Assembly: GCA_023244815.1 (NCBI GenBank)
Contig: JAHFLQ010000004.1
Location: forward strand, 1-59,259
Length of the DNA: 59,259 bases
Direction: 5' to 3'
From: a bacterium
Lineage (GTDB): Bacteria > Patescibacteriota > Minisyncoccia > UBA6257 > WO2-44-18
Below, piece after piece: positions 1-53,643 of this stretch; position 1 is the stretch's first letter; each line of letters begins with the position of its first letter. Below the pieces are notes generated by a model, which was not told the DNA's origin, did no database searches, and saw only the letters and a list, made by a program, of their open reading frames with translations. The translations under genes were made by a program, and so were the position numbers.

Positions 1-71
1 TGCCCCCACTAGGAATCGAACCTAGGTCAACTGGTTAAAAGCCAGCTGCTTTACCACTAAGCTATGGGGGC
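1..71 (-). tRNA. tRNA-Lys(UUU)
   Basis: Reverse complement folds as a cloverleaf: acceptor GCCCCCA/TGGGGGC, anticodon loop CTTTTAA, T-loop TTCGATT; no encoded CCA visible (window edge). Confidence 0.95.
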
Positions 72-20643: not shown

Positions 20644-21231
20644 ATGAAACTCAAAGAAGAGCAGACGTTGGTATTAATAAAGCCCGATGGTGTTAAAAGA
20701 GGGCTGATCGGGGAAATTATTCGGCGAATTGAACAGCGCGGCTTAAAGATTATTGCCTTGCAAATGTTCCAGGCCACCAAAGACGAACTGGGCAAGCATT
20801 ATTCCGATTCGTCGGAAAATCTGAAAGCGATGGGCGAAAAAACGCTCGCGACTTATCAAAAGCATGGATTGGACGCCGAAAAAGAAATTGGCACGGACGA
20901 TCCGGTGAAGATCGGCAAGATGGTGCATGGCTGGATCGTGGATTTTATGGCCGAGTCGCCGGTAGTAAAGATGGTAGTACAGGGCTTACACGCGGTAGAA
21001 ATGGTGAGAAAGCTTGTCGGCAACACGATGCCGTCGCAGGCGGAAATGGGTACGATCCGCGGCGATTATTCGGTAGATTCCGCCGTTCTCGCCAACGCCC
21101 AGAAGCGCGGCATTCGTAACCTGGTACACGCTTCCGGAAATGTTGCCGAAGCCGAAGCGGAAATAAAACTGTGGTTCAAGGATTCGGAAATTCATGCGTA
21201 CAAGAGAGCGGAAGAAGATATCATGTTTTAA
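20644..21231 (+). CDS. ndk: nucleoside diphosphate kinase
   Basis: TLVLIKPDGVKRGLIGEII, GTIRGDY, NLVHASG (catalytic His); carries an internal insertion. Confidence 0.95.
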   Translation: MKLKEEQTLVLIKPDGVKRGLIGEIIRRIEQRGLKIIALQMFQATKDELGKHYSDSSENLKAMGEKTLATYQKHGLDAEKEIGTDDPVKIGKMVHGWIVDFMAESPVVKMVVQGLHAVEMVRKLVGNTMPSQAEMGTIRGDYSVDSAVLANAQKRGIRNLVHASGNVAEAEAEIKLWFKDSEIHAYKRAEEDIMF

Positions 21232-21235
21232 GTGT

Positions 21236-21415
21236 CTTTGGCTCTCAAGCCGGACTGCCCTGCGTCACCAGAATAAATTTTTTCCTGCGAAAAATTTTTC
21301 TTCACCCTCGCCGAGCTATGGTTGATTAAGAGAATAATTATAATCAACCAACCAAGCTAGCTCGCCTGCGGGATGTGCCGCAGACCAATCCGGCTTGCGC
21401 CAAAGTTTATTCTGG
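21236..21415. repeat. structured intergenic element, family copy A
   Basis: Nested inverted repeats (21246-54/21389-97, 21312-18/21358-64, 21319-28/21341-50, 21268-77/21406-15); homologous to 27969-28139. Confidence 0.85.
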
Positions 21416-21470
21416 ACTTTTAACTGTAGGCGTGTTATTTTCTTGTCAGAACTTTTTATAAGGAGGATTT

Positions 21471-22169
21471 GTGCTGGAAACTGCCAAGCAAGCGATCTTG
21501 TCCACAGCGATTTCCTTGACGCTACACCGCTTTGAGCGGTTAAATAAGGGAGAGGAAGACGCGAAATGTAATTTTATGGCGAAGCTCAACATCCCAAAGA
21601 GGAAGACAAAAAATCCCGTCATTGTCGCGATGGTTGGTTTGGTTGGCTCTGGAAAGACTTCTGTTGCCAAGACGATCGCTCCTCTACTTGGCGCTACCAT
21701 TATCACTGGCGACGACATTCGTCTGGAATTGCATGCGAAGGGAGAACGTTACGACAAAGCGCGCATGATTGCCGAGGATGTTGCGATGGAGGCCATCAAG
21801 AAAGGTAGTAACGTGGTTTTGGATTCCGACGCGATTGATGCCAAGAAGCGAGCGAGTTTGCAGGCAAAAGCCAAAAAAAATGGCACAAAGGTTTTGTATG
21901 TGCGAGTTTATGCCGAGCGGGACGTGATGATCGAACGTCTGCTTTCCGCTAAGTACAGCCCGGAAAGTTTTTTCAAAAGCGCGACGATTGCTATTCGCGA
22001 GATGTGGCGGCGAACGCCCAATCATTATCGCTGGAATTCCAAAAATGGCGGAACATTCGAGTTGAAGAAGCTGTCTTTCCATATTTTCGCCACGACTGAT
22101 ACCACGGATTCCACCAAGTGGCCGGTTGAGGCTCACCGAACCGCGGAGAAAATCGCCAGTCAGTTTTAA
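21471..22169 (+). CDS. P-loop nucleotide kinase-like protein (AAA_33/gluconate-kinase type)
   Basis: Walker A GLVGSGKT, ITGDDIR, VVLDS; SD AGGAGG before GTG; terminator 22178-22203. Confidence 0.8.
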   Translation: MLETAKQAILSTAISLTLHRFERLNKGEEDAKCNFMAKLNIPKRKTKNPVIVAMVGLVGSGKTSVAKTIAPLLGATIITGDDIRLELHAKGERYDKARMIAEDVAMEAIKKGSNVVLDSDAIDAKKRASLQAKAKKNGTKVLYVRVYAERDVMIERLLSAKYSPESFFKSATIAIREMWRRTPNHYRWNSKNGGTFELKKLSFHIFATTDTTDSTKWPVEAHRTAEKIASQF

Positions 22170-22260
22170 GATCAATCAAGCGACCCATAACGGGTCGCTT
22201 TTGTTACAATGTTATAATAAAAAGTATCGCGAAAGGTCGCCTCTAATTTTTAAAATTATT

Positions 22261-22470
22261 ATGAACCAACATTGGAAATGTAGGATTTGGAAGAAGCTGT
22301 GGGGTTTGAGCCTGCTGGCTTCGGTGGTCGGCTGGGTGGCAGTTTTGCAAAACAGCCCGGTACTCGGTTTGCAGGGCGTTTACTGGTTTTTGACCGCCTT
22401 GTCGCTCGGTGTCTTGGCGATACCGATAAAGATGGATTGCCAGAATTGTGGAGTTTGCCAAGTCAAGTAA
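22261..22470 (+). CDS. small 2-TM membrane protein with C-terminal CxxCxxC
   Basis: ATG 22261; two hydrophobic segments; ends DCQNCGVCQVK. Confidence 0.65.
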   Translation: MNQHWKCRIWKKLWGLSLLASVVGWVAVLQNSPVLGLQGVYWFLTALSLGVLAIPIKMDCQNCGVCQVK

Positions 22471-22473
22471 AAT

Positions 22474-22501
22474 AAAAAAAGCGGCTTCACGCCGCTTTTT
22501 T
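22474..22501. terminator. bidirectional intrinsic terminator
   Basis: A7-GCGGC-ttcac-GCCGC-T6. Confidence 0.85.
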
Positions 22502-22502
22502 A

Positions 22503-22904
22503 GTCTCGCGTAAGATCCTCGGAAAGAATGTATCCGCCAGCCCCTGTACTTCACATATCCCACCAGAATTTGATAGCGGAAAAATGAGACGAGTTCGCGA
22601 AGCTGAGGCGTAAGTGTAGATTCTACTCTACGCCGAAAGCGACAATGAAATCGGCCATTTTTCCGCTACCCCGAAGGGGCGGGTAAATTTTGGCCAGCTC
22701 CTTTGTTGCGCTCGCCGGCAATAGAGTCTATTGCTCGGCTCGCGCGTCGCGGATCTGTCTAAAAATTTTCTCCGTCAAACTGCTGCGATATGTGAAGTAC
22801 ATGGGGACAGCATAGTGGGCGGGTTCATCGTTCCGACCAAAGCCGGAAGAGCTATTACCTTGCCCTGAATAAAGTATTTGATCCGGAATCTTAACAGCGG
22901 GACT
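22503..22904 (-). ncRNA. candidate long-hairpin ncRNA (6S-like?) with palindromic inserts in its apical region
   Basis: Extended -10 TGcTATACT (22911-22919, minus strand) just upstream; 5'/3' ends pair; 15-bp perfect stem 22545-59/22787-801; ends at a terminator; no credible ORF. Confidence 0.5.
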
Positions 22905-22938
22905 AATTTCAGTATAGCACAAAAGTTCAAAACTTAGC

Positions 22939-25251
22939 CTATGGCTTCAGTTTTAGCAAGATTCGTTTTATCAGTGCTTCAGCGGCGCCTTCGTGGCCGC
23001 GGACAATCATCAACGACGTATTGACGTCTTTAGCGAGAACCTCCGCCACGCTGCCTAATTTAAAGTGAGAAAGAAATTTCGGACGGGCGGAGCCGATAAT
23101 AATCAGATCATGATTTTTCTTCCGCGCCTCTTCCAAAATACTGCCGGCTATCGAGCGTCCAGAAACAAGATTGATTTCATCAAAATCCTTTTTCTTCAGT
23201 CCCATAGCATTCAGCATCACACTCGGGTCAGGCTTGAGGTAAGTCGGGATTTCCTGCCTGATTACGCTGAAGAGCTCCATCGTTGGTTTGAAGTAGTCGC
23301 GAAGGCCGCCGGCAATTTCTCCGATCAGTTCCAAATAAGGCCCCCGCGCTGATGGATGAGCAGAAACCAGAACGGATTTAAAGGGCTTGGCATCTTGCAC
23401 AACCAAGAGACCGCACTTGGATTCCCGCAGAATGCGATCAATTTTACTAGATAAAATAACGCCCTGAGTCTGGGTGTAGCCATACCAATTGAGAATCAGG
23501 AGGTCGCAGTCCTCTTGCTTAACCACGTCCAAAATTACATCCACCACATCGCGTCCGATGAGAATAAAACTGTGGAAATTAATATCTTTTATTTCAGGGC
23601 CAGTTCTTTGATTGTACTCGGCAACCAGCAAAGTAAGCTGATCGAAGAATTTCTTTTCTTCCTCCAATACCTCGGGTTTTATCGTCGATTGATTGAGTGG
23701 AAGTGCCGGCGGAATTTCATGGATGCGCACAATAACCAATTCGCCATCGAATTTACTGGTTAAGGCGAAAGCAGTTTCGCTCAAGTTTTTTATTTCTTCC
23801 CAAGAAAGATTTGGAGCAAGGGGCAAAAGAATCCGCTTGCCGGTTTTCGGGCCGATTCGGGCGGCTTGCTCATAAACGATGCCGGTTTCAAAAATTTCGC
23901 GGCTCTGGGTTTGGGCGTAAGCAAAATAGTTTACAAATCCGAGCAAGACCCAGAAGGCGGCGATTACCCAAGCGGTCAGATTAACCTGAATCAACGTGAA
24001 TCCCAAAACTACATAAACAGCAATAGCAATCAGCGGCAAGACCGGAAAAAGGGGGATTTTGTAATACCACGGCGTGTCCGGCCACTTGTAGTGAATATTA
24101 ATGCCGGCGATGTTCAACTGAAGAAAGAGCAGAATAAAGAGCAGGCTGGCAAGACTGGCGACATCGAAAAGCGGCAAGAAAGCCACCATCGCGACGATAA
24201 GCAGGATGGAAGCGATAACAGCTAAGTGCGGCGTCAGATTACGAAGGTGAATTGAGGAAAGCCGCGACCAGACGTTCTTGTCCCTCGCCAGGGCGTAGGA
24301 AACCCGGCTTGAAGAGTAGATGGTAGCGTTTAGGGCGGCGAGGTTAGCGAGCAACCCGCCGACTACCATGATGAAATGCCCGAACGGCATAAAGCTTTGA
24401 GCGGCCCTGGTGACGGCGCCCTCGCCCCAACCAGCCACAACCTGCCAAATCGGCCCTCCATCGCGAGTGGCCGCCATAATAATCAATGAAGTCAAAAGAT
24501 AGATTGCGCTGACTATGCCCCACGAGGCAATCAACCCAACCTTGATAGTTCGTTTAGGATCTCTTGTTTCCTCACCTGCCTGTACCTGAATCTCCGAACC
24601 TTCAAAGGCGATGTAAAAAAAACTAGCCGCGGCCAAGACCCCCAAAATTCCTGACGGCAGAAGCGGAGTGAAGTTGCCGAGTGATTGCGCCGGTTCGGTA
24701 AAAACTTTAAAAGCTCCGAACACAATAAACAAACCGAGGATTACTAAAAGGAATACGGCGATGACGTTGCCGGCTTGCCCGCTGGTTTTCGCCCCTTTCC
24801 ATTGAAAGTATCCAAAAACGAGAACTACCAAAGCGCCCACTATTTTTTCTATGGAAAAAAGCTCCAGGCCAAAATCATTGCCGGTCACTATTTTTACGAG
24901 TTCATAGGCATAGAACCCAAAGCTAAGCGCGTACAATCCAGCGGCTGCCGAGTGGGCAAACCAACTCATCCAGCCGGCCAGAAACCCCTGGAATTTCCCG
25001 AGTCCCTTACTTACCCAGAGGTATCCGCCGCCAGCCTCCGGGAAAGTCGTGCCGAGAGCGATATACATCTGAAGATTTAAGAAAGCGACGCCGGCTCCTA
25101 ACAGCATGGCGAGAAATAGTCCGGGACCAGCCAAGCCGGCGGCCGGTCCCAGTAAGGTAAAAATGCCGCCGCCGAGTAAAGCGCCGACACCTAGCAAAAT
25201 AATTGACCCTAACCCAAGAGTTCTGGCCAGTTTTACTTCTCCTTGTTCCAT
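22939..25251 (-). CDS. APC-family amino acid permease fused to universal stress protein (USP) domains
   Basis: LARTLGLGSIILLGVG, TFPEAGGGY, AFEGSE...EET, 12 TM; C-terminal CDLLILNW and DLIIIGSA...LGSVAEVLAK. Confidence 0.9.
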   Translation of the reverse strand: MEQGEVKLARTLGLGSIILLGVGALLGGGIFTLLGPAAGLAGPGLFLAMLLGAGVAFLNLQMYIALGTTFPEAGGGYLWVSKGLGKFQGFLAGWMSWFAHSAAAGLYALSFGFYAYELVKIVTGNDFGLELFSIEKIVGALVVLVFGYFQWKGAKTSGQAGNVIAVFLLVILGLFIVFGAFKVFTEPAQSLGNFTPLLPSGILGVLAAASFFYIAFEGSEIQVQAGEETRDPKRTIKVGLIASWGIVSAIYLLTSLIIMAATRDGGPIWQVVAGWGEGAVTRAAQSFMPFGHFIMVVGGLLANLAALNATIYSSSRVSYALARDKNVWSRLSSIHLRNLTPHLAVIASILLIVAMVAFLPLFDVASLASLLFILLFLQLNIAGINIHYKWPDTPWYYKIPLFPVLPLIAIAVYVVLGFTLIQVNLTAWVIAAFWVLLGFVNYFAYAQTQSREIFETGIVYEQAARIGPKTGKRILLPLAPNLSWEEIKNLSETAFALTSKFDGELVIVRIHEIPPALPLNQSTIKPEVLEEEKKFFDQLTLLVAEYNQRTGPEIKDINFHSFILIGRDVVDVILDVVKQEDCDLLILNWYGYTQTQGVILSSKIDRILRESKCGLLVVQDAKPFKSVLVSAHPSARGPYLELIGEIAGGLRDYFKPTMELFSVIRQEIPTYLKPDPSVMLNAMGLKKKDFDEINLVSGRSIAGSILEEARKKNHDLIIIGSARPKFLSHFKLGSVAEVLAKDVNTSLMIVRGHEGAAEALIKRILLKLKP

Positions 25252-25306
25252 AAAAAACCGCCTTTTAACAGCGATAGGTTTTATTATATACTATTTGGGA
25301 CTCTTT

Positions 25307-27076
25307 ATGAGCAACATCCGAAATTTTGTAATTACTGCCCACGTTGACCATGGAAAATCTACTTTAGCAGATCGGTTGCTGGAAATTACCGGTACCGTGG
25401 AAAAACGGCTGATGAAACCGCAGTTTTTGGATCAAATGGAGCTGGAAAGGGAACGGGGAATTACCATTAAGATGGCGCCAGTGAGAATGACCTATACCCT
25501 GAACGGGCAGAATTACATTTTGAATTTAATTGATACACCCGGCCATTCCGACTTCGCTTATGAAGTTTCCCGCGCGCTGGCCGCCGTGGAGGGGGCGGTG
25601 CTTTTAGTGGACGCGACGCAGGGAATTCAGGCACAGACACTCGCAAATTATGAAAGCGCTCGCCGGGCCGGACTAAAAATTATTGGCGCTGTGAATAAGA
25701 TTGACGTTGCCCAGCCGGAGCAGATACAAGATTCGCTGACGGACTTGGCAGATTTAATCAGCGTTGACACCGAAGAAATTTTGAAAGTTTCCGGGAAAAC
25801 AGGCGAAGGAGTGGATAAATTACTGGAAGCGATAGCGAGTAAGGTGCCGCCGCCGAAGGGTTCACAAGAGAAAATCGGACGCGGTCTAATTTTTGATTCG
25901 CTGTATGACGAACACAAGGGCGTTATTGCGTTCATTCGGGTATTTGACGGAGAGTTTGTTACCAACCAAGACGTCTACCTTCTCGCCACTAAAGCTCTTG
26001 CCAAAGCGAAAGAGATTGGATATTTTTTACCTCAATTAAAACCAGCGGAAAAATTGAAAACCGGTGAGATTGGCTATGTTGCGACGGGTCTGAAAGATCC
26101 GGGAAAATTGAAAATAGGCGACACTCTTTCCATAAGCCCAGCTGTGAAACAGTTGGCCGGCTATGCCGAACCCAATCCAGTAGTTTTCGTGTCCTTTTAT
26201 CCGGAAGAGGGCGATCAATATGACGAGCTTAAGCAAGCGTTAGGGAAATTGCGACTAACCGATGCTTCACTGACCATTGAGCCGGATGCGAGCGAGGTAC
26301 TGGGCCGGGGATTCAAAGGAGGATTTTTGGGACGACTTCATTTTGAAATTATTGCTGAGCGTTTGGCGCGCGAATTCAAGGTGGAAACCGTCCACAGCTT
26401 CCCTTCGGTGGCTTATAGAGTGGACGGCCAGTTAATTACCAACCCGAAGGACTTCCCCAACGATTACCGGAGTGCCGAAGAGCCGATGACGCGAACGGAA
26501 ATCGTCACGCCGCCGGAATATTTGGGAGCGATTATCCGGCTAAAAGAAATTTTTCGGTTTTCCGCAATGACCACTGAGACGCGCAAAAATAAAGTAGTGG
26601 TCAAAGCCGATCTGCCGCTCGCCGATCTCATCCGCGACCTTGACGATAAATTAAAATCCGTTTCTCAGGGATTCGCGTCGTTTTATTACGAGCTAACTGG
26701 CTACGCGTCGGCGGATGTGGCAAAATTGGAGATTCATGTCGCGGAAAATGTCGTTCCGGGATTAACCCGCATTTTACCTAAAAAAGACATCGAACGGGAA
26801 GCGCGCTCAACTTGTGAAAAATTAAAAGAACTTTTGCCTAAACAACAATTTATTCAGGCTATCCAGGGAGTTGTTGGTGGGAAAATTATCGCTCGCGAGA
26901 CGATTCCGGCAATGCGGAAACTTTTAGGCAGTTTTGGAAAAACTGGCGGTGACCGGACGCGCAAGATGAAACTTTGGAAAAAGCAGCAGCGCGGCAAGGA
27001 GCGCCTGAAGGAGCGCGGCACTAGTACCAACATCAAGATCTCGGCGCGTATCTTTAAGGAGCTGTTGAAGAAATGA
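25307..27076 (+). CDS. lepA: elongation factor 4
   Basis: IRNFVITAHVDHGKSTLADRLLE, ERERGITIK, DTPGHSDF, NKID, GFLGRLH; ATG 25307. Confidence 0.97.
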   Translation: MSNIRNFVITAHVDHGKSTLADRLLEITGTVEKRLMKPQFLDQMELERERGITIKMAPVRMTYTLNGQNYILNLIDTPGHSDFAYEVSRALAAVEGAVLLVDATQGIQAQTLANYESARRAGLKIIGAVNKIDVAQPEQIQDSLTDLADLISVDTEEILKVSGKTGEGVDKLLEAIASKVPPPKGSQEKIGRGLIFDSLYDEHKGVIAFIRVFDGEFVTNQDVYLLATKALAKAKEIGYFLPQLKPAEKLKTGEIGYVATGLKDPGKLKIGDTLSISPAVKQLAGYAEPNPVVFVSFYPEEGDQYDELKQALGKLRLTDASLTIEPDASEVLGRGFKGGFLGRLHFEIIAERLAREFKVETVHSFPSVAYRVDGQLITNPKDFPNDYRSAEEPMTRTEIVTPPEYLGAIIRLKEIFRFSAMTTETRKNKVVVKADLPLADLIRDLDDKLKSVSQGFASFYYELTGYASADVAKLEIHVAENVVPGLTRILPKKDIEREARSTCEKLKELLPKQQFIQAIQGVVGGKIIARETIPAMRKLLGSFGKTGGDRTRKMKLWKKQQRGKERLKERGTSTNIKISARIFKELLKK

Positions 27077-27117
27077 GCCACTAGCCACTAGCGACTTGGC
27101 ACTAGTATACTGAAAGC

Positions 27118-27375
27118 ATGAAAGCATTGGCGTGGCTTGCGGCAGTTGTTATCTTAGGCGGTTTAAGCGTCCAGCTTTACCATTTGTATAAAAACAACAC
27201 TGAGGTCGGTGCTCGGTTGGAAGCGACGCGTGTCGAGGTGAAAAACCTAAGCGCGGACAAGGACCAACTCGAGGCCGATCTTGGCTATTTTTCCGAGACC
27301 GAGAATTTAGCAAAAGAGCTGAAAGCCAAATTTGACTACAAGCGGCCGGGCGAAAAACTTATTAAAATACAGTAA
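27118..27375 (+). CDS. FtsB/DivIC-like septum formation protein (TM plus coiled coil)
   Basis: TM followed by a coiled coil; ends ...DYKRPGEKLIKI, like the DivIC PGE motif. Confidence 0.6.
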   Translation: MKALAWLAAVVILGGLSVQLYHLYKNNTEVGARLEATRVEVKNLSADKDQLEADLGYFSETENLAKELKAKFDYKRPGEKLIKIQ

Positions 27376-27968
27376 TGAAAGAGCATATACACAAATTCCA
27401 ATGGTTTTACCTGACCTTTTTGCTGGCAGTTTTTATAGGTGTCGGATTTTATTACTTTATTCACCTGGGACATTATCCAATAGCGACCGTAAATGGAAAG
27501 TGGATCGCCGCGAAGGATTTTAATAACGAATACTCGGTGGCGTTCCAGTATTACGCGAAAACACTTGCCAAACAAAAGCAGATTGACTTAAGAAGCGCGG
27601 ATTTTCAAAAAGAATTGCGTCGCGCGGCGCTCAACGATCTGATCGACAAATCTCTGATTAATGCGGAACTTAAACAAAGGACTGGCAGTGACTTTGATTC
27701 GATTTTGGACAATAAAATTGGGGAACAAAAAATGGACAGTAAAGCTCTCGCTGACGCGGCCAGACTTTTATATGGCATGAACGTGGACGATTTCAAAGTT
27801 CTGGTCCTGATTCCGCAGGCGGAAAAGGAATTGTTGGATGGGCGCCTATTTTTAGAGCAACGGAAACTTGACGAGTGGCTGGCAGACGCGGAAAAAATGG
27901 CTCACGTTATCATTTTGACACCGGAGTTTGGCTGGGCTACAAATAAAGTTGTTTTAAGCACACAATAG
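27375..27968 (+). CDS. SurA N-terminal-domain-like membrane-anchored chaperone
   Basis: TM followed by PIATVNGKWI...ALNDLIDKSLINAELK pattern. Confidence 0.65.
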   Translation: MKEHIHKFQWFYLTFLLAVFIGVGFYYFIHLGHYPIATVNGKWIAAKDFNNEYSVAFQYYAKTLAKQKQIDLRSADFQKELRRAALNDLIDKSLINAELKQRTGSDFDSILDNKIGEQKMDSKALADAARLLYGMNVDDFKVLVLIPQAEKELLDGRLFLEQRKLDEWLADAEKMAHVIILTPEFGWATNKVVLSTQ

Positions 27969-28139
27969 CTTTGGCGGGCCTGGTATTCTGGAAACACAAT
28001 AACTTTTCTCCTGCGGAAAAGTTTTCTTCACCCTCGGCGATTTTGCGGTTCGTTAAGGAAAAATTATAACGAACCAGCCAAGCCAAATCGCCTGCGGGAC
28101 GTTCCAAAATACCAAGCCCGCCTTCGCCTAGAGTTTGTG
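27969..28139. repeat. structured intergenic element, family copy B
   Basis: Stems 27973-79/28116-22, 28001-08/28016-23, 28036-43/28085-92, 28047-55/28067-75; shares CTTTGG, TTCTTCACCCTCG, AATTATAA, CCAAGC and TCGCCTGCGGGA with copy A. Confidence 0.85.
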
Positions 28140-28171
28140 CGCTTTGGTGTGGTAGGTTAGAGGGTGGGTAT

Positions 28172-28245
28172 GCGGGTGTGGTTCAGTGGTAGAATGCGAC
28201 CTTCCCAAGGTTGAGACACGGGTTCGATTCCCGTCATCCGCTCCA
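28172..28245 (+). tRNA. tRNA-Gly(CCC)
   Basis: Acceptor GCGGGTG/CATCCGC, anticodon loop TTCCCAA, GGTTCGATTCC, encoded CCA. Confidence 0.95.
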
Positions 28246-28260
28246 ATAAAAAATTCCCGA

Positions 28261-28503
28261 CTAGCGGGAATTTTGGAATTTTTCAATAAACGTCCGGTAG
28301 ACCGCTCGACGCATTGCGGGAAGCGGAGCATTTGCACCGCTTATCCATCTGCGGGTGGTGGAGTACGAAGTGTCGAATTCATGAGCCAGAGATTTTTCAT
28401 TCCACAGGCCCATATCAGATCCTGTCATCAGGATTTCATGAAATTGATGAAAGTCATTGGGGTCAGCGCTGCGTATTTTCTTGATCAATTCATTGCGCGT
28501 CAT
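28261..28503 (-). CDS. small XRE/Cro-like HTH protein (80 aa)
   Basis: ATG 28503 after TTCATTGAAAGGAG; EKSLAHEFDTSYSTTRRWISG fits an HTH; terminator AAAATTCCCG/CGGGAATTTT at 28248-28272. Confidence 0.7.
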   Translation of the reverse strand: MTRNELIKKIRSADPNDFHQFHEILMTGSDMGLWNEKSLAHEFDTSYSTTRRWISGANAPLPAMRRAVYRTFIEKFQNSR

Positions 28504-36053: not shown

Positions 36054-39000
36054 ATGAATAAGCCCAGAACGGCGTTTTTTTGGATTTTTATTGGCCTGTT
36101 TTTAGGTTTTACTTTTGGTTTAGCCTATTCAGTTCGTGCCAGCTTGGTTAGTGAAGATATTTTTACAAAAAGTTTTTTCAGTCAAGCGGTAGGTGAATTA
36201 AACAAAATAGAAAAACAGCCTTCGTATGTCAGCGAAGGTTTTCATAAAATTCAGGACTTTGCTCAGATAAATTTCAGCGTTCCCCAGCCGCCCTCTAATG
36301 CCGACTTGCCGAAAGTGACCATCACCATTACTTCGGAAGGGCCGCCGGTATACAACGAAGATTTATTGCAAAGGACTGTAAACAACCTACAGCACACGTC
36401 CCGTTCTTTGCAGGAGTTTATTTCCAGCATCCAGCCGACCATGTTAGTTGTGCCTCAAGGAGTTGAGGTGTCCATTACCGTTCCTCAGCCGCAAGGAGCG
36501 GCGCCGCCTCCGCAGGTAGTACGGGAGGTTGTCACGGAAAGAGTTGTCCAACAGACGCCGGTGATTCAGGAAATTCGGCTTATTCTTCCGCCGGCGCCTG
36601 CTGGGTATTTTGCCCAATTCGGACAGCAATCGGTGGGCGGCTCTAATGTCACTAACATTACCAACCCGGTGATCCGCGAAACCATTGTGCAGACCTCGGT
36701 GGATAATTCGGCTGTTAACGCTCTTAGCCAATCCATCCAGCTCCAGTTGGCCGATTTGCAAAGAGTGATTGCCCAGTCAGCGCCCACTCTTGATGACGCC
36801 CACATTCCAGACAACATTACTGTCAGTAACTACCTTACGTTGGCCGGCGGCAGTATCACAGGCGGCCTGACCGGATCATCATTTACGGCAGTTACTTCCG
36901 GCACCTCCACTTTCGCCGGCGGTTTACTGGTTGCGACCAGCACCGGCAACTTTGGTGTTGCGACTGCTACTCCGGCTTCGCTTTTGTCGGTTGGCGGCAG
37001 CGCCCTGATCAAGGGTAATTTTACGGTTGAGGGAACGGTGGATTTTCAAGGCGCTTGTGTTGCTTGCACCCAGTGGGTTACTACCGGAAATGATATTTAC
37101 TACACCACCGGCAACGTCGGCATCGGCACCACCACGCCGATGGAGAAATTGACATTGACGGGAGGGAATTTCTTGAACCAGATTAGTGCCAGCCCCACAT
37201 CCAGGAGCGGAGTGGATCTCAGTGGTGCCTCCCCTGACCGCATATTTGTGGTAGGCCGATACGCCTATATCGTAAAAGATAATAATTCTGCCACTTGTTC
37301 CGGTACCACCGAGCCCAAAGGCTGTGAGCTGCAAATTTACGACACCGGTACCGCTTCCACTACTTATCTTGGCGGTATCGCCATCGGATCCTCCGACGAT
37401 GTTTATGGGCTTTATGTTTCCGGCCGATACGCCTATACCACCAAAACTGCCAACGGCGGCACCTGTTCCGGTACCACTCTTACCGGCTGTGAACTTTCCA
37501 TCTATGACATTTCCAATCCCTCCTCCATCACGGCGGCGGGTGGAATCGATCTCGGCGATGTTAACGCCCAAAGCGTTTTTGTTTCCGGCCGCTATGCCTA
37601 TGTTGTCAAGAGTGACTCGGATAGTGCTACCTGTTCCGGAACAGCCATCAACGGTTGCCAATTCGCGATTATTGACATTTCCAATCCAGCCGCCCCGGTG
37701 GCAGTAAGCGGCGCCCGGTTAGGCGGGGCCATTGTAACCGCCTATAGCATTTATGTTTCCGGCCGTTACGCCTACATAACTAATGGTTCCGATAACCATA
37801 ATCAATTCGTTATTTATGACGTATCCAACACCGCTTCTACGACCGAAGTAGGAGGTGTGAATGTAGGGTCTTCCGTATCGGAGGTTCAAGTCGATGGCCG
37901 ATACGCTTACATACTTAAGGGCAACACCAGCGGCACCTGTTCCGGCACCACTCTGACCGGCTGTGAGTTTTCTATTTACGACATTTCCAATCCGGCTTCC
38001 CCGTCAGCGGTTGCCGGCCTTGATCTGGCCGTTGGCAGTAATGCCTACCCCGGCCCGGAACTGTTTCTTGCCGGCCGCTATGCTTATATTGCCCAACTTA
38101 GCCGGGCGGGCGCCTGCTCCACCACTTCGGTGTCAGCATCAGGATGCGAAGTTCTTTTTATTGATATTTTCAATCCGGCGTCGCCGGTGATTGCCGGCGG
38201 CCTGGATATGGCAGATGACAATACAAACGGAATTTTTGTTTCTGGGAAATATGCTTATGTAATCAAAAATGCGAATACCGGCACCTGTTCCGGCACCACT
38301 CTTACCGGCTGTGAGTTTACCATCTACGACCTCGGGGGCTCCGAAATCGGCACTGCCAACATCGGCTCCCTGGAAGCCGGCCAACTCCAGGTACGTAATA
38401 ATCTGACTGTTTCCGGCCAAGCCAACATCGCTTCCAGTTTAAACGTGGGGGGTGGCGGAGTGAAAACCGACGGTTCGTTGTCCGTGGCTTCGACATCTAT
38501 CTTGTATGCCGGTCTGGGCACCGGCACTACCAGCTTATGGGGGCAACTCTCTCTTGATCCTCTGGCCGGCACCGTTAATTACCGCACCCCTGCCTTCGCT
38601 ATTCAGGATGCCGGCACCTCCACCCCCTCCCTACTGGTAGACGGCGGATACGGCAGAGTCGGTATCGGCACCTCCTCCCCCTACGGACAGTTCTCTATTG
38701 AAATCACCGGTGAACCGGCCAACTTAACCAATGAGGGCCTGCCCGCCTTTGTAGTCAGCTCTCGCGGCACTTCCACTCCATCTTTGTATGTGAGGAGCGA
38801 TAACGGTAATGTCGGTTTCGGTTCTTCTTCTCCCGGCGCCGCTCTTGCTGTGACTGGCGCTGCGGTAATTTCTGACAATACCACCCTCAACACCCTGGAT
38901 ATCCAGGGCACCAGTCTTTTAGAAGGTAATGTCACTATAGCGGGCAATGTAGTTAGTAGCGTAACTGTCACTAACACTGCCAGCGGCGGCGGTTTTAGCA

Positions 39001-42000
39001 GCGCCGGGATTTCTGTGACAAATTTGGATACGAACATAGCGGGTCTTACGATCAACGAACTTCTAGCTTCGGGAAACGGCTCGGGGCAAATAGTTATTAC
39101 TCCCAGAGATACCTCGATCGGATCCGGTATTGGCCCTTTGATTACTATAACCGGCAACAGTTTTCAGGGAGGCTCCGGTGCCACTTTTTACCTTAAAATA
39201 AACCAGAACGGGAATGACGCCAATACCCTTTTGCTGGGGACGCTCCTTCAGACAAGCAGCGGACCGATCATTCTAAACCCGAACTCGGATCTTATTGTCC
39301 AATCCAACGCTACGGTGCGCGCCCGCTTCACCTCCACCGCTCTTGATGTGGTCGGCACTACCACCACTTCCAGAGGCATCAACATTCTTGGCAACCAACT
39401 TTATATCGGCAATGGCATAACAGCTACCTCATCAATTTATGGCCAATACGGCAATCTAGGATTTGGCTCCACCACTCCCTACGGCCAGGTATCCATTGAA
39501 GCTCAACAGGGCATAGTCGGTTCATCCACGCCGATATTTGTAGTTGGAGACCAGGGCTCCTCTACACCCTTCATATATGTAAGCGGAATAAACGGGAACG
39601 TGGGCATCGGCACCAGTAGCCCAGCCGCTCCTCTTGCAGTGGCCGGAAACGGCACTGCTCCCGCAGTTCTCATCAGTCAGGCTTCTACCGGCGATCTCTT
39701 GGACGTTATTGACGCGAGCAACGGGGCTCCTGCGCTCGTTGTCAAAGATGGGGGAAACATTGGTATTGGGGTAGCGAATCCTGATTTTCCTCTGCATATT
39801 CGCAAAGACCAGAATAATGGCAACACGATAGTATATGTGGAGAACCAAACCAACGATACGGCTTCCGAAACGAGATTTATGGCTCAAGCCGGTACTTTAA
39901 CAACCGATAGAATTATCCTCAGTATAACCTCTCCCAGCTTTACCGCTAGCGGGTTGGACGCGCCCAGCCAGGCCAGGTTCATTTCATCCAGACCACTTTT
40001 ACTTAAAACCGATAACTATATCCGGTTTGGGGTATCCAGCACGGAAATTGCCCGCATTACCAGCTCGGCCTTGGAAATAGGCGCGGGAGATTATGGCAGT
40101 TCACCGGCGATCCGGTTTATTAATACTCCAGGCGGTACAATTCAATCTTTTATTGGCAGCGAAGGCACGGCTTCTTGGAACGTCTCCGGCTCGGCAGTGG
40201 GCGACTTAATTCTAAGAGAAACGACTAGCGGCGGCAGGATTCTACTCTCGGCTAATGATGGTGGCGCTATTCACCTGGCGGTCACCAGCGGCGGCAATGT
40301 CGGCATTGACCGCAGCAATCCTTCAACTGCTTTGGAAGTGGTCGGCACTACCACCACTTCCAGAGGCATCAACATTCTTGGCAACCAACTTTATATCGGC
40401 AACGGCCTCGTTGCCACCTCATCAATTTATGGCCAATACGGTAATCTCGGTTTCGGCTCCACCACTCCCTACGGCCAGGTATCCATTGAAGCTCAACAGG
40501 GCATAGTCGGTTCATCCACGCCGATATTTGTAGTTGGAGACCAGGGCTCCTCTACACCCTCTCTATATGTCAGCGGAATAAACGGCAACGTGGGCATTGG
40601 TTCTTCTTCTCCACTGGGCCAGTTCGCTATTGAAGTTAACAGGGACAAGAATCGCAATCCTGACGGTACGGATAATGTTCCGGCATTTTTCATAGGCTCT
40701 AATGGAACCACTACTCCAATATTGGCAGTTACCCGCTCTAACGAGGGGAGAGTCGGTTTCGGCACTACTTCACCATATGGCCAAGTTGCGATTGAAATCA
40801 GGGGCGAGCCATCTAACATCGCCAACGAAGGGTTGCCGGCTTTTGTTATCTCATCAAGAGGCACCGGCACTCCAAGCCTTTTTGTGAGTAATAATAATGG
40901 CTTCACCGGTTTTGGTTCATCCAGCCCGTGGGGTCAGCTTTCAGTTGAAATATTAGATCAGGGAGATGAATCTGTTCCGTCATTCATAGTAGGCGATACC
41001 GGCACCTCCACCCCCGCCCTGGCGGTCTATTCCAGCGGGATCACGACTATCGAAAACCTCCAAACCGGCGTTCTAAGTTTTGACACCAACGCCGGAGCGG
41101 TTACCTGGGTTGATTTGCCGGTTACTACAGCCGCAACCTGGGCAACTATCGAGTCCTATACGGCCCAAAACGGCGCCTCCTCCACCCTAACTGTTTATTC
41201 GGAAAGTAATGGCAAGGGAGGCGTTTTCCGCCAGCGCATAGGTATCGGCACCACATCTCCCGGTTCCACGCTTACAATTTCTACCGCGACTACTTCCCAA
41301 GCCGCTTTCTTTGTTGAGGGGAACGCCGATCGGGATTTCGTGATCAATGAAAATCTTTTTGTCGGCATAGCTACTTCGGTGCCCAGGGGATTGTTCGCCA
41401 TAGATGTCCCTTCGGCCGCTGACAATATACCGGTTGACGCCAAAACTCCCGCCTTTGTTGTTCAAGACTCCGGCACCTCCACCCCCTCCCTGCTGGTAGA
41501 CGGCGGATACGGCAGAGTCGGTATCGGCACCTCCTCCCCCTACGGACAGTTCTCTATTGAAATCACCGGTGAACCGGCCAACTTAACCAATGAGGGCCTG
41601 CCCGCCTTCGTCATCTCCTCCAGAGGAACCAGTACTCCAAGCTTTTTTGTCAGCGGCACTAATGGGAATGTCGGTATCGGCACATCTTCGCCGCAGGCGT
41701 CCCTTGCTATAGATAACATTAATACCGGCAATACTTTCCCCGCGCTGCTTGTTAGGGCGAGTGGTTCTGGCCAGGGCAATGTCGCTATCGCTGTTGATGG
41801 TGATGACGTTTGCAAATCTGGCACGGTTATAGCCGCTACTTGCTTGTTGACTGACTTGGCTGAGCTATATCCTACGTCTGAAAGTCTTGGCGGGGGAGAT
41901 GTTGTTATGTTTGACAATGACGACCCTATTCACATCAAGAAAGCCACATACGAAGAACGCGATAAACTTGGCGGCGTTATTTCCACCGCTCCGGCCATCG

Positions 42001-42725
42001 TTTTTGAAGGGCCCAGTATCAAGATTTTAGGCGGCCAGTATTCCGCGCAAGACAAAAAAGCGCCTATCGCTCTTTCTGGCCGAATTCCGGTAAAAGTTAA
42101 ATTGGACAACGGTCCAATTCGTATCGGTGACCCGATTACAGTTTCTACCACGACTCCAGGCGTCGGCGTTAAAGCGGTTGATTCCGGAAAAATTATCGGT
42201 TTTGCGATTGATAACCTAGAAACTGCGACCACTGCCCCAGGGATCTATGATCAGGTGATGGTTTTTGCTAACTTAACCTACTGGACCGATCCTAAACACG
42301 AAACCAACGAAGGCCTGTTGGCGCGGGTAGTAGATGCGATTGCTGATTGGCTGAAAACTGCCGCGATTAAGATAAAAGACCTTGTTGTTGATACTTTGAA
42401 GATTGGCACTCAAGATCAACCAAGCGGTATTACCACTTACGATGTTAGGACGCATAATCCTTACTGCATCGTCGTGGACAACGGCCAGACAACTTCTATA
42501 CCCGGCGTTTGTACCGCGGAATTGATTAATAATTATCTGACTCCGCCCGGATCTTCCGGCGGTGGAAGTTCTCCCGCGCCAGTTTCTGAACCCACGCCTG
42601 AACCAACTCCTACGCCCGAACCCACGCCTGAACCAACTCCTGAGCCATCGCCAACCCCCGCTCCTGAATCCGCGCCCGCGCCAATCGCTCCAACAAACGA
42701 TCAGACTACCCAACCGGCGCCATGA
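36054..42725 (+). CDS. giant surface/adhesin-like protein (2223 aa): LVIVD-type beta-propeller, GIGTTSP repeats, tailspike-type autoproteolytic chaperone domain, PEPT tail
   Basis: N-terminal TM/signal; 7 repeats of VSGRYAY...IYDISNP; many GNVGIGTSSP units; DLAELY...GVIS...PIALSGRIPVKV...GD..PG; (PTPE)n. Confidence 0.85.
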   Translation: MNKPRTAFFWIFIGLFLGFTFGLAYSVRASLVSEDIFTKSFFSQAVGELNKIEKQPSYVSEGFHKIQDFAQINFSVPQPPSNADLPKVTITITSEGPPVYNEDLLQRTVNNLQHTSRSLQEFISSIQPTMLVVPQGVEVSITVPQPQGAAPPPQVVREVVTERVVQQTPVIQEIRLILPPAPAGYFAQFGQQSVGGSNVTNITNPVIRETIVQTSVDNSAVNALSQSIQLQLADLQRVIAQSAPTLDDAHIPDNITVSNYLTLAGGSITGGLTGSSFTAVTSGTSTFAGGLLVATSTGNFGVATATPASLLSVGGSALIKGNFTVEGTVDFQGACVACTQWVTTGNDIYYTTGNVGIGTTTPMEKLTLTGGNFLNQISASPTSRSGVDLSGASPDRIFVVGRYAYIVKDNNSATCSGTTEPKGCELQIYDTGTASTTYLGGIAIGSSDDVYGLYVSGRYAYTTKTANGGTCSGTTLTGCELSIYDISNPSSITAAGGIDLGDVNAQSVFVSGRYAYVVKSDSDSATCSGTAINGCQFAIIDISNPAAPVAVSGARLGGAIVTAYSIYVSGRYAYITNGSDNHNQFVIYDVSNTASTTEVGGVNVGSSVSEVQVDGRYAYILKGNTSGTCSGTTLTGCEFSIYDISNPASPSAVAGLDLAVGSNAYPGPELFLAGRYAYIAQLSRAGACSTTSVSASGCEVLFIDIFNPASPVIAGGLDMADDNTNGIFVSGKYAYVIKNANTGTCSGTTLTGCEFTIYDLGGSEIGTANIGSLEAGQLQVRNNLTVSGQANIASSLNVGGGGVKTDGSLSVASTSILYAGLGTGTTSLWGQLSLDPLAGTVNYRTPAFAIQDAGTSTPSLLVDGGYGRVGIGTSSPYGQFSIEITGEPANLTNEGLPAFVVSSRGTSTPSLYVRSDNGNVGFGSSSPGAALAVTGAAVISDNTTLNTLDIQGTSLLEGNVTIAGNVVSSVTVTNTASGGGFSSAGISVTNLDTNIAGLTINELLASGNGSGQIVITPRDTSIGSGIGPLITITGNSFQGGSGATFYLKINQNGNDANTLLLGTLLQTSSGPIILNPNSDLIVQSNATVRARFTSTALDVVGTTTTSRGINILGNQLYIGNGITATSSIYGQYGNLGFGSTTPYGQVSIEAQQGIVGSSTPIFVVGDQGSSTPFIYVSGINGNVGIGTSSPAAPLAVAGNGTAPAVLISQASTGDLLDVIDASNGAPALVVKDGGNIGIGVANPDFPLHIRKDQNNGNTIVYVENQTNDTASETRFMAQAGTLTTDRIILSITSPSFTASGLDAPSQARFISSRPLLLKTDNYIRFGVSSTEIARITSSALEIGAGDYGSSPAIRFINTPGGTIQSFIGSEGTASWNVSGSAVGDLILRETTSGGRILLSANDGGAIHLAVTSGGNVGIDRSNPSTALEVVGTTTTSRGINILGNQLYIGNGLVATSSIYGQYGNLGFGSTTPYGQVSIEAQQGIVGSSTPIFVVGDQGSSTPSLYVSGINGNVGIGSSSPLGQFAIEVNRDKNRNPDGTDNVPAFFIGSNGTTTPILAVTRSNEGRVGFGTTSPYGQVAIEIRGEPSNIANEGLPAFVISSRGTGTPSLFVSNNNGFTGFGSSSPWGQLSVEILDQGDESVPSFIVGDTGTSTPALAVYSSGITTIENLQTGVLSFDTNAGAVTWVDLPVTTAATWATIESYTAQNGASSTLTVYSESNGKGGVFRQRIGIGTTSPGSTLTISTATTSQAAFFVEGNADRDFVINENLFVGIATSVPRGLFAIDVPSAADNIPVDAKTPAFVVQDSGTSTPSLLVDGGYGRVGIGTSSPYGQFSIEITGEPANLTNEGLPAFVISSRGTSTPSFFVSGTNGNVGIGTSSPQASLAIDNINTGNTFPALLVRASGSGQGNVAIAVDGDDVCKSGTVIAATCLLTDLAELYPTSESLGGGDVVMFDNDDPIHIKKATYEERDKLGGVISTAPAIVFEGPSIKILGGQYSAQDKKAPIALSGRIPVKVKLDNGPIRIGDPITVSTTTPGVGVKAVDSGKIIGFAIDNLETATTAPGIYDQVMVFANLTYWTDPKHETNEGLLARVVDAIADWLKTAAIKIKDLVVDTLKIGTQDQPSGITTYDVRTHNPYCIVVDNGQTTSIPGVCTAELINNYLTPPGSSGGGSSPAPVSEPTPEPTPTPEPTPEPTPEPSPTPAPESAPAPIAPTNDQTTQPAP

Positions 42726-51776: not shown

Positions 51777-52625
51777 ATGAAAAAATTCGTAGTCTTATTT
51801 CACGGCGAGTGTTGGGACGGATTCGGCGGGGGATATGCCGCTTGGAAAAAATTTGGCAATAAAGCCGAATATTACCCGTTGAAACACGGCGGTGATCTGC
51901 CGAAAGATTTAAAAGGACGCCAAATTTATCTGATTGACTTTAGTTTTCAGGAATCGGCTATGAAGAAACTGGTGGAAGATAATTACGTAGTCGCCCTGGA
52001 TCACCATGTTTCTGCCGAGAAGACGGTCAAAATGGCGGACGAGTGGGTATATGCTTTGAAAAATTCCGGCGCGGTGATCGCGTGGAATTATTTTCATCCC
52101 CATAAGCCGGTGCCGAAACTTTTGAGGCATATCCAAGACGTGGATCTGTGGAATTGGAAACTGCCGCGCACAGCCGAATTGATGGCCTATATGGGACTGG
52201 TGGAATATGATTTTAAAATTTGGGATAAGATCGCGCGCGACTGGGAGAATCCGAAAAAGCTGAAATTTTATATCGATCGCGGCCAGTATATTTTGAAATA
52301 TGAAAATCAGATGGTGGGACGATTGTTAGAGGCAGCCGAAGTAGCAAAATTTGAAAATTATAAAACTTTAGTTGTAAATTCTCCGGTGCTTCATTCAGAA
52401 GTCGGAAACCGGTTAACGGAGATGTTGCCGCCAATCGCGATTGTCTGGAGCGAGAAGAACGGCATCCGGCGGGTTTCGCTACGATCCAATGGCAAAGTGG
52501 ATGTGGCCAAATTGGCGGAAAAATACGGCGGCGGCGGGCACAAAGCAGCAGCCGGATTCTCGGTTTCCCTAAAGAAACCGGTGCCGTGGAAAATTATTAA
52601 ACCAAGTTTTGATGGCAAAAAATAA
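51777..52625 (+). CDS. DHH/DHHA1 phosphoesterase
   Basis: FHGECWDGFGG, LIDFS, LDHH, GGGHKAAAGF. Confidence 0.9.
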   Translation: MKKFVVLFHGECWDGFGGGYAAWKKFGNKAEYYPLKHGGDLPKDLKGRQIYLIDFSFQESAMKKLVEDNYVVALDHHVSAEKTVKMADEWVYALKNSGAVIAWNYFHPHKPVPKLLRHIQDVDLWNWKLPRTAELMAYMGLVEYDFKIWDKIARDWENPKKLKFYIDRGQYILKYENQMVGRLLEAAEVAKFENYKTLVVNSPVLHSEVGNRLTEMLPPIAIVWSEKNGIRRVSLRSNGKVDVAKLAEKYGGGGHKAAAGFSVSLKKPVPWKIIKPSFDGKK

Positions 52626-53262
52626 ACAAGGCACCCTTGGTCTTAAAAGCGTAAAGTACTACGCCTGCTTTGTGCCGAGAACCGGCCGTCAGCTGATAAC
52701 CAAAATTTGGGCTGACTGCGCGAGTCTGATAAAGGGACAAAGCGGTGCCCGGTATAAAAGTTTTAAAACAAAAAACGAGGCGGAAGCGTGGCTTGCGGCT
52801 GGCGCGGTATATGGGCCATCGCGCGCGGAACGCAAAGAAAAACTAGCAAAGGGCATTTACTTTGACGCCGGTACCGGACGGGGAGAAGGGGTGGAAATCA
52901 GCGTAACGGACGAGCGGGGGAAAAATCTTTTACACAAAGCGTTTTCGCGCGAAGAGCTCAATAAACACGGCAAGCGTTTGTTGGACGATCCGGAAGCTAC
53001 TAACAACTATGGCGAACTACTTGCTTGTCGCTATGCTCTGCAAATCGCGATTAGCAACGATATTAAGCAAGTTTTCGGCGATAGCAAGCTGGTGATTGAT
53101 TACTGGTCCAGGGGATATATAAAAAAGAAAGAAGTGGCGATGGCAACAGTGAAGCTGGCGGAAGAGGTGATGAAGAGCCGTAACGCATTTGAATTGAGTG
53201 GCGGCGCTCTTAGTCGCGTCTCCGGCGACGTGAACCCGGCAGACCTTGGTTTTCACCGCTAA
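52609..53262 (+). CDS. ribonuclease HI with N-terminal viroplasmin-like hybrid-binding domain
   Basis: KYYA...W..C...IKG..A.YKSF.T..EAEAWL; YFDAGTGRG, TNNYGEL, GDSKLVIDYW. Confidence 0.88.
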   Translation: MMAKNKQGTLGLKSVKYYACFVPRTGRQLITKIWADCASLIKGQSGARYKSFKTKNEAEAWLAAGAVYGPSRAERKEKLAKGIYFDAGTGRGEGVEISVTDERGKNLLHKAFSREELNKHGKRLLDDPEATNNYGELLACRYALQIAISNDIKQVFGDSKLVIDYWSRGYIKKKEVAMATVKLAEEVMKSRNAFELSGGALSRVSGDVNPADLGFHR

Positions 53263-53279: not shown

Positions 53280-53541
53280 GGCCGCAGTCGAACATTCTCG
53301 CAAACACGCTATCAAGGTGGTGCTCGGCTACCCAAAAAATTCCTCGGGAACCGGGTGTCCGTTTTGCTCCAGCGGCAAAACGGCACCGCTTAGCTCTCGC
53401 CGATTTGCCAGGCACCCTTAGCGCTGACTCGGTCTATGAGTCAGGCTAGCCAAATCGGCTCCGAGATATTCCCTGCGGAATTTCTTGGATATCCTCGCTG
53501 AAGTTGTTCGAGGAGGTTTGCTCAAAAATTCGCCTGCGGCC
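53280..53541. repeat. 262-bp nested palindromic element (C)
   Basis: Terminal IR GGCCGCAG/CTGCGGCC; inner stems 53332-50/53469-88, 53359-67/53375-83, 53399-407/53451-59, 53424-30/53438-44. Confidence 0.75.
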
Positions 53542-53604: not shown

Positions 53605-53643
53605 AAAAAGCCCGTTCGCGACACGAATGTCGGAACGGGCTTT
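53605..53643 (-). terminator. intrinsic terminator with inner mini-hairpin
   Basis: AAGCCCGTTC/GAACGGGCTT stem enclosing CGACA-cgaa-TGTCG; U-tract on the minus strand. Confidence 0.75.

Follow-up and report, generated by a model that had tools for sequence, protein, structure and literature searches.

A Y-shaped structured element in a Patescibacteria genome, a candidate family of small non-coding RNAs

We analyzed a stretch of 59,259 nucleotides (the window) from contig JAHFLQ010000004.1 of the Patescibacteriota assembly GCA_023244815.1. The window contains three copies (A, B, and C) of an intergenic structured element that we call the Y element, and a fourth copy (D) is in another genome. 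Copy A is after ndk (20644-21231); at its 3' end it overlaps the stop codon of that gene (21229-21231), and its 5' start is 50-155 nt from the next plus-strand gene. Copy B is between a SurA_N-like gene (27375-27968), whose last seven codons are overlapped by the 3' part of the copy, and tRNA-Gly (28172-28245), which starts 26 nt past the 5' end of the copy. Copy C is in a 673-nt gap that follows an RNase H-like gene (52612-53262). The neighbors of the copies are housekeeping genes, in an order that is conserved among relatives, and the closest matches to NDK (85-89% identity) are in Candidatus Harrisonbacteria and Patescibacteria.

Copies A and B are homologous, and the unit that they share is longer than it first appeared. 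A sequence-only reading of the window had described an element of ~175 bp, present twice, with invariant linkers, compensatory changes in every helix, and a kept crossing pair. The two co-oriented copies are where it placed them, all the linkers that it quoted (CTTTGG, TTCTTCACCCTCG, AATTATAA, CCAAGC, and TCGCCTGCGGGA) are common to both, and its stem pairings are correct for A and for B. The location was right, but homology continues beyond the coordinates first noted, because a terminal helix (AAG...CUU) closes the unit. This helix, P0, is AAGU/ACUU in copy A (5' strand at 21416-21419, 3' strand at 21230-21233), and in copy B it is formed by AAGCGCACAA (28135-28144) paired to UUGUGUGCUU (27956-27965). 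The single-stranded linkers are identical between the two copies and the core aligns without a net change in length. The features of the two copies are:

21228..21420, minus strand: copy A, full unit (248 bits with covariance model R1)
21305..21372, minus strand: long arm H2 of copy A, with P5 CCC/GGG, a 3x2 internal loop GCA/GA, P6 CGAGCUA/UAGCUCG, and further a bulge GCUUGG(U), P7 UGGUUGAUUA/UAAUCAACCA, and an apical loop beginning UAAUU
21275..21297, minus strand: short hairpin H1 of copy A, loop CGCAGGA
21298-21304, minus strand: junction linker UGAAGAA of copy A
21406..21415, minus strand: 5' tail CCAGAAUAAA of copy A, in a pseudoknot with the junction strand UUUAUUCUGG (21268-21277)
27954..28145, minus strand: copy B, full unit (112.6 bits with a model built from copy A alone)
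28031..28098, minus strand: long arm H2 of copy B, with P5 CCC/GGG, loop GCA/GA, P6 GGCGAUUU/AAAUCGCC, bulge GGCUUGGCU, and P7 GGUUCGUUA/UAACGAACC
28001..28023, minus strand: hairpin H1 of copy B, loop CGCAGGA
28024-28030, minus strand: linker UGAAGAA of copy B
27995-28000, minus strand: pseudoknot strand AUUGUG of copy B

The 12-mer TCGCCTGCGGGA, allowing up to two mismatches, is found at 13 sites in the whole window (5.8 expected; 0 of 100 shuffles reached 13), and most of the surplus sites fall in coding regions.

The helices of copies A and B have changed while their pairing was kept. Each copy folds far better than shuffled sequence on either strand (z = -5.1 to -7.2). The covariance model built from copy A alone found copy B with E = 1.5e-34, with no other credible match in the window. 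When A and B were aligned by fitting to the model, standard pairs made up 97.4% of pair cells, and both sides had changed in 14 of the 58 pairs. When the 3' partners were slid by 1-3 columns as a control, 32-50% of cells paired and there were 0-3 double changes. The double changes were in P2-P4 (8), P6 (3), P7 (2), and H1 (1). There were none in P1, which pairs poorly in copy B, and compensation in every helix was therefore a slight overstatement. With the terminal helix and the pseudoknot, which contribute one compensatory pair each, double changes total 16 in 67 pairs. The crossing pair noted earlier is confirmed: a 5-bp core is kept in both copies (CAGAA/UUCUG in A, CACAA/UUGUG in B) with one compensatory change from G-C to C-G. 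In copy A, the part of the pseudoknot that is free of competition from other helices is CAGAAU/AUUCUG.

The element is not limited to two copies. The first exact-pattern scans gave no further homologs, and two were then found, copy C in the window and copy D at the equivalent site in another genome. Copy C was first flagged by a repeat finder as a 31-nt similarity between copy B and 53442-53472. It scored 16 bits with the model built from copy A, with filters off, and its region takes the same Y fold on the minus strand. Its closing stem (53330-53353 paired to 53466-53490) contains a GCA/GA loop. Copy D was detected in the RNase H neighborhoods of relatives by a three-sequence model built without it. 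It starts 4-5 nt past the stop codon of the same RNase H-like gene, a site equivalent to that of copy C, and the RNase H proteins at the two loci are 71% identical. These features are:

~53322..53498, minus strand: copy C, a diverged member (99 bits with the three-sequence model, 107 bits in a later search)
53394-53465, minus strand: long arm of copy C, with P5 CUC/GAG, loop GGA/GA, P6 GCCGAUUUG/CAAAUCGGC, and bulge GGCUAGCC
53354-53387, minus strand: H1 of copy C, loop CGCUGGA
53493..53539, minus strand: possible decayed long-arm fragment beside copy C (CCGCAGGCGAA...GCGAGG), a weak match (E = 3.4 in a 301-nt search)
10650-10779 of contig L231 (NCBI GCA_964637575.1, a related member of the Parcubacteria), minus strand: copy D (54 bits, E = 1e-12)

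The linkers, which had been read as invariant, are so within the A/B subtype but vary in the other copies. Compared to A and B, copy C has P5 CUC/GAG for CCC/GGG, an internal loop GGA/GA for GCA/GA, a junction linker CUAAGC for UGAAGAA, and a hairpin loop CGCUGGA for CGCAGGA. Copy D has no helix P7 and retains P5 (AAC/GUU), the GGA/GA loop, P6, GCUUGG, and the hairpin loop CGCAGGA. Its stems are quite unlike those of copy C, yet both copies pair. That the stems differ throughout and still pair indicates that one locus has retained the fold over time, beyond any moment of transposition.

Read on the minus strand, the copies have a common shape of ~130-195 nt in which a long closing stem leads to a three-way junction with a long arm and a short hairpin. 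The closing stem is 20-28 bp, with 1x1 mismatches in copy A and an extra G-N-A/G(A) loop in C and D, and the 5' junction strand between it and the long arm is 2-3 nt. The long arm consists of P5 (3 bp), a 3x2 internal loop (5'-G-S-A / 5'-GA), P6 (7-9 bp), and a conserved GCUWGS bulge, a motif that is in the apical loop in copy D. P7 is optional and carries the UAAUU loop in A and B. The pair beside the internal loop covaries, being G-G in A, G-C in B and D, and C-G in C. The junction linker contains AAG or UAG, and H1 is a hairpin of 8-13 bp with the loop C-G-C-W-G-G-A. The terminal helix and the strand AUU(C/G)UG that pairs with the 5' tail to form the pseudoknot are confined to A and B. Variation in the element is greatest in the terminal stems, and conservation is greatest in the internal linkers.

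Covariation extends to all four copies. When the four cores were aligned with plain MAFFT, standard pairing held in 95% of cells, compared to 32-53% in slid controls, and double changes were present in 16 of 26 pairs. All 8 pairs of H1 are kept in all four copies, and 7 of the 8 covary. The claim that the structure is under selection is thus well supported by the compensatory changes between A and B and between C and D, together with a bias of wobble pairs to the minus strand.

The wobble pairs and the folding energies both point to the minus strand. The curated helices contain seven non-Watson-Crick pairs (two each in A and B, three in C, and none in D). Read on the minus strand, every one is G-U and none is A-C; if neither strand were favored, the probability of 7 of 7 on one strand is ~0.008. 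With RNA parameters, the stability of the minus strand exceeds that of the plus strand by 10, 14, 13, and 0.4 kcal/mol for A, B, C, and D; with DNA parameters, the margins are 10, 7, 7.5, and 0.5 kcal/mol. GC skew is positive on the plus strand and uniform across the window, and by this measure the folded strand is the leading-strand template. The usual leading-strand bias of C-to-T changes would create G-U pairs on the plus strand, the opposite of what is seen, which argues for selection rather than mutation bias. Together, the G-U bias and the greater stability of the minus strand indicate that the folded strand runs opposite to the flanking genes. It is antisense to the upstream gene at all three copies in the window and, in copy D, to the neighboring gene.

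The distribution of the family is narrow, being limited to two genomes as far as our searches reach. The covariance model found no further copy in the rest of the window or in 18 kb of flanks from the 139.6-kb ENA metagenome contig that contains it. Contigs with proteins identical to those of the window are 99.9-100% identical to it and so offer no population variation. Searches of viral, plasmid, and phage sequences were likewise negative: the matches listed from a looser viral scan appear to be chance, a second one, whose pattern came from B, C, and D, had no matches, and blastn of copy A against plasmid and phage collections gave nothing relevant. The contigs of six other relatives have no copy at the equivalent sites; in these, tRNA-Gly is directly after the SurA_N-like gene, and the gap after the RNase H gene is 27-70 nt or contains unrelated AT-rich sequence. 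The exact-pattern scans described below returned only chance matches because the linkers vary in copies C and D. The two paralogues with which we began have invariant linkers that vary across the family, so that exact-motif scans failed and a covariance model succeeded.

Copy A is at the edge of a hot spot of gene turnover downstream from ndk. The segment from ndk to an amino-acid permease gene (21416-22938) has different genes in every relative that we compared (contigs L047, L050, L053, and L239): here an AAA_33/zeta-toxin-like kinase and a 69-aa open reading frame (ORF), and elsewhere pseudouridine synthase with RNase T, DUF218, or SAM synthetase. In L239 (Logan SRR22388039, NDK 89% identical), a textbook promoter (TTGACA, 17 nt, TATAAT) downstream from ndk (1545-1826) is followed by a predicted RNA of ~215 nt with a very strong fold (-104 kcal/mol, z = -7.8), a closing stem of 15 bp, and, at its end, a clean intrinsic terminator. 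Neither Rfam nor the Y-element model matches it, and it is another unannotated small-RNA candidate at this variable spot. In L050 (10589-11055), ndk is followed by a 468-nt gene-free gap that contains several hairpins and is unrelated to the Y element by covariance-model search. After the SurA_N-like gene of L047 (18220-18451) are two tRNA-like 5' halves, each broken after the anticodon-loop region by unrelated sequence, which may be intron-containing or disrupted tRNA genes of Ca. Harrisonbacteria.

Our preferred interpretation, which we hold with middling confidence, is that the Y element is a previously undescribed family of structured small non-coding RNAs (ncRNAs) of ~130-195 nt, encoded on the minus strand and convergent with the gene whose stop codon it abuts. 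A fold kept through heavy change, sequence conservation confined to the loops, strand-specific wobbles, and the spacing around the copies are the signature of a functional structured RNA made from the minus strand. On the 5' side of that strand, the spacers are 26-155 nt, which leaves room for a promoter, and on the 3' side they are 0-5 nt (A, B, and D) or ~60 nt (C). Upstream of C and D, a minus-strand gene ends in a strong terminator that is followed by a weak -10-like box (TAATGT or TAATAT); A and B have a common CCTAC...AAAG flank ahead of the terminal helix. The terminator upstream of copy C is a strong hairpin, GCCCGTTC...GAACGGGC, between an A run and a T run (53607-53642). The elements are not protein-coding: copy A has stops in all six frames, the copies share no open frames, and a protein-word search with the open minus-strand frame of copy B matched only the window's own ORF.

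We infer from these features that the element is transcribed, where its 5' and 3' ends lie, and that it has a partner. Y RNA genes would be transcribed from the minus strand, convergent with the protein gene. The helices would be a scaffold that is free to change as long as pairing holds, and the conserved loops and junction would most likely be the working surface, at which a protein or RNA partner docks. The A/B subtype would add the pseudoknot between its 5' tail and the junction, and a terminal helix that joins both ends. The closing hairpin is positioned such that it might also stop or stabilize the convergent mRNA.

Several observations weigh against a minus-strand RNA gene. Scans found neither a convincing sigma-70 promoter upstream of the elements on the minus strand nor an intrinsic terminator 3' of them on that strand, and a promoter for copy B would have to be in the 26-nt spacer or in tRNA-Gly, in antisense. 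The plus strand also folds well (z = -5 to -7) and is almost certainly transcribed within the upstream operons. No copy was found at the equivalent sites (the ndk and RNase H neighborhoods) of the six other relatives, which is unusual for an important RNA gene. Exact patterns reached far and gave no copy of the A/B type: TTCACCCTCG-N44-60-CGCCTGCGGGA had 45 matches among 185,579 species genomes (one per GTDB species), all of them chance matches in G+C-rich genomes as judged by blastn, and a three-block pattern had 49 matches among JGI metagenome contigs, which fell in a protein gene conserved in G+C-rich bacteria or were due to chance. The covariation counts come from four sequences in two genomes, too few for statistics of the R-scape type, and the structure was derived from the same sequences on which it was tested.

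The earlier reading had left the choice between an unannotated ncRNA family and an element mobilized as single-stranded DNA (ssDNA). A non-autonomous element of the latter kind would be moved as folded ssDNA by an HUH enzyme encoded elsewhere (IS200/IS605 TnpA, RAYT, or similar) or by a site-specific recombinase, with the Y hairpin and its G-N-A loops as the recognition structure. Among DNA mini-hairpins, those with C-GNA-G loops and sheared G-A pairs are a classic stable type, and the minus strand is the better fold with DNA energy parameters too. There are three copies in 59 kb, and the element is patchily distributed among close relatives in which gene order is conserved. An imperfect direct repeat of 10 nt (TTTTAAGTGT / TTTTAACTGT) flanks copy A, with a chance of ~4% of arising in the window, but copy B has no matching repeat at the equivalent position. 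A 9-nt left flank, TGTTTTAAG, is common to A and B and hints at a target preference; at copy A it is the native end of ndk, judging from relatives without the element, and C and D do not have it. No HUH, TnpB, or recombinase gene is near any copy. Among the genes of 77 kb (the window and 18 kb of contig flanks), we found no transposase, HUH enzyme, TnpA, RAYT, TnpB, IscB, IS110 recombinase, or reverse transcriptase, and the search for a TnpA or RAYT gene near the copies thus came up empty. Recent transposition would give near-identical copies, whereas these are highly diverged with compensated stems, and C and D have kept the fold at one locus in genomes that are distant from each other. The ends of the unit are paired to one another, with no separate subterminal hairpins, and the folded strand is the leading-strand template, whereas IS200/IS605 elements act on the lagging-strand template. 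The ncRNA half of the earlier proposal fits better, given the shared C/D locus with its kept fold, the spacer on the 5' but not the 3' side, the lack of TnpA, RAYT, TnpB, and reverse transcriptase genes in the 77 kb, and the identity of the folded strand; the ssDNA half keeps some support, and we consider it unlikely.

Two further explanations place the function on the plus strand or in the DNA itself. As a cis-acting element in the 3' untranslated region (3'-UTR) of the upstream gene, the structure could serve as a large terminator, block exonucleases, or be a site of processing, such as one that would release tRNA-Gly from the SurA_N-like transcript. Such an element would need no promoter of its own. 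Every copy is directly downstream from a plus-strand gene, the plus-strand fold has the z-scores of -5 to -7 given above, and a U-rich run follows the closing stem on the plus strand in A and D. A consensus scan found no intrinsic terminator on the plus strand at the elements. There is no canonical one after ndk, the SurA_N-like gene, or the RNase H-like gene; the only nearby sites that fit the consensus are after tRNA-Gly (28250-28274, the first one), within the gene downstream from A, and inside B as a chance match on the minus strand. This explanation is improbable nevertheless, since on the plus strand all wobble pairs become C-A mismatches and stability falls by 10-14 kcal/mol (A, B, and C), the conserved loops, pseudoknot, and three-way junction exceed what a terminator or barrier needs, and in relatives the same gene junctions do without the element. 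A DNA-level site, as a cruciform or for protein binding in replication, recombination, or nucleoid organization and with a fixed orientation to the replication fork, would be in keeping with the long, near-perfect inverted repeats and with the common orientation of the three window copies relative to the uniformly positive GC skew. It gives no reason for the asymmetry of G-U versus A-C pairs or for the conservation of asymmetric loops, bulges, and a pseudoknot, and we regard it as very improbable.

A rather remote prospect is that the Y element belongs to a new functional class peculiar to Parcubacteria, a multi-copy Y RNA or its ssDNA image that does more than a passive small RNA would, such as a new self-processing or ligand-sensing RNA or the recognition or guide module of a mobile or RNA-guided system yet to be described. 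If so, the variable stems and the tail into the neighboring gene would carry specificity. The genomes of Candidate Phyla Radiation bacteria are tiny and contain very little non-coding DNA and, to our knowledge, almost nothing has been described about their regulatory RNAs. Three copies in 59 kb that keep their fold despite change and match nothing catalogued indicate that the Y element likely does something needed by the cell or by a genetic parasite. If it is an RNA gene, the new family that it represents has a clearly defined architecture, in which twin G-N-A/GA motifs are combined with a CGCWGGA loop and a pseudoknot; a mobile ssDNA element of this kind would be unusual in these organisms.

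Other features of the window and its surroundings are separate from the Y element. At the left edge (contig L229 1-8130, to the left of the window, and window positions 1-71), genes for a KAP NTPase, a type I restriction-modification system (HsdR and HsdM), and a large serine recombinase adjoin a tRNA gene, probably as an integrated defense island. This serine recombinase is the only recombinase that we found, and its island in the left contig flank is apart from the copies. Between 663 and 1802 are three units of 37-95 nt, 526-575 nt apart, each ending in a hairpin CCCCGCTACATAAGCGGGG followed by a T run and each coming after a paralogous ORF of ~150 aa, which looks like a tandem gene triplication with terminators. 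The repeat list of the window is dominated by a 2223-aa ORF full of internal repeats and the 711-aa protein with three Laminin_G_3 domains that follows it (36054-44857), both probably large surface proteins. In Ca. Harrisonbacteria (L046/L047 14875-17112), LepA (745 aa) has a PDDEXK_3 nuclease domain inside its GTPase domain, and the gene is split in two in L048, which suggests an inserted mobile or intein-like module.

We compared the Y element to known RNA families and found no match. With the 4227 models of Rfam 15 at the gathering threshold, the whole window contained only tRNAs, and permissive searches of copies A-D gave matches at chance level only (E >= 1.5 on A and B, none on D). A partial match to STnc180 (E = 0.03) was spurious and came from the terminator hairpin beside copy C. 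We found no description of a comparable element in the literature. Four specific resemblances were considered and rejected. UGAAGA resembles part of the hammerhead core, but this sequence is absent from C and D, and the remaining junction strands do not match a hammerhead. A K-turn is ruled out by the covarying pair next to the internal loop, which is incompatible with the required G-A/A-G register. The only similarity to signal recognition particle RNA is the octamer CAGCCAAG. An integrated island bounded by A and B is contradicted by relatives without the elements, in which the intervening genes are in the same order.

Known RNA-based systems resemble the Y element in part. 6S RNA has a similar size (~180-200 nt), ends paired in a long closing stem, and two paralogues in some bacteria, but it is a rod with a large central bubble that mimics an open promoter. 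The Y element has a three-way junction instead, with 2-3 nt between closing stem and long arm and no bubble of two open strands; the Rfam 6S models do not match it, and it has three copies in 59 kb. The omega RNAs of TnpB and IscB and the bridge RNA of IS110 are also structured RNAs of 130-200 nt with a pseudoknot and a 3' tail into flanking DNA; here, in contrast, no TnpB, IscB, or IS110 recombinase gene is in the 77 kb, and HEARO (the model of the IscB omega RNA) gave no match. Unlike the msr-msd RNA of retrons, the Y element has no reverse transcriptase domain in any neighboring gene, and unlike intrinsic terminators, it has no short G+C-rich hairpin followed by a U run on the plus strand.

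Mobile elements and recombination sites share other properties with it. Like integron attC sites, the copies are directly after a stop codon, vary in sequence, and fold as a single strand in a strand-dependent manner. However, no R''/R' core sites (RYYYAAC/GTTRRRY) were seen by eye at the ends of the Y element, there is no integrase or cassette array, and the Y element is longer, has a three-way junction, and conserves its internal loops rather than its ends. In contrast to miniature inverted-repeat transposable elements (MITEs), its terminal stems are the most variable part, a plausible target duplication is found at copy A only, and its strand-biased G-U pairs would not be expected of a double-stranded site. 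IS200/IS605-derived PATEs and REP/RAYT systems are alike in conserving structure over sequence, in their stable G-N-A loops, in being intergenic, and in being strand-specific. They differ in that no Y1 transposase gene is near the Y element, its copies are old and compensated, and one locus is kept in two genomes. In PATEs, there are separate subterminal hairpins, whereas the 5' and 3' halves of the Y element pair over 20-28 bp with two internal arms. IS200/IS605 elements have one short target sequence directly 5' of each copy and no target duplication; for the Y element, TGTTTTAAG is common to A and B on one side, at distances of 3 and 10 nt from the first helix, and C and D are without it. 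REPs are palindromes of 20-40 nt in many copies, often in inverted pairs, with a RAYT gene, whereas Y units are 130-195 nt with a junction, three in 59 kb, with no RAYT gene seen.

The closest likeness is to the orphan structured ncRNA motifs of bacteria (the Weinberg/Breaker type in Rfam, such as raiA and HEARO), and the Y element is best filed as a new family within this group. The members of the group are intergenic, with conserved loops and junctions and covarying helices, and they have multi-stem junctions with a pseudoknot, a narrow phylogenetic range, and a function that was not known at discovery. What sets the Y element apart from them is that several diverged paralogues are found within 59 kb, antisense to their neighbors and abutting the stop codons.

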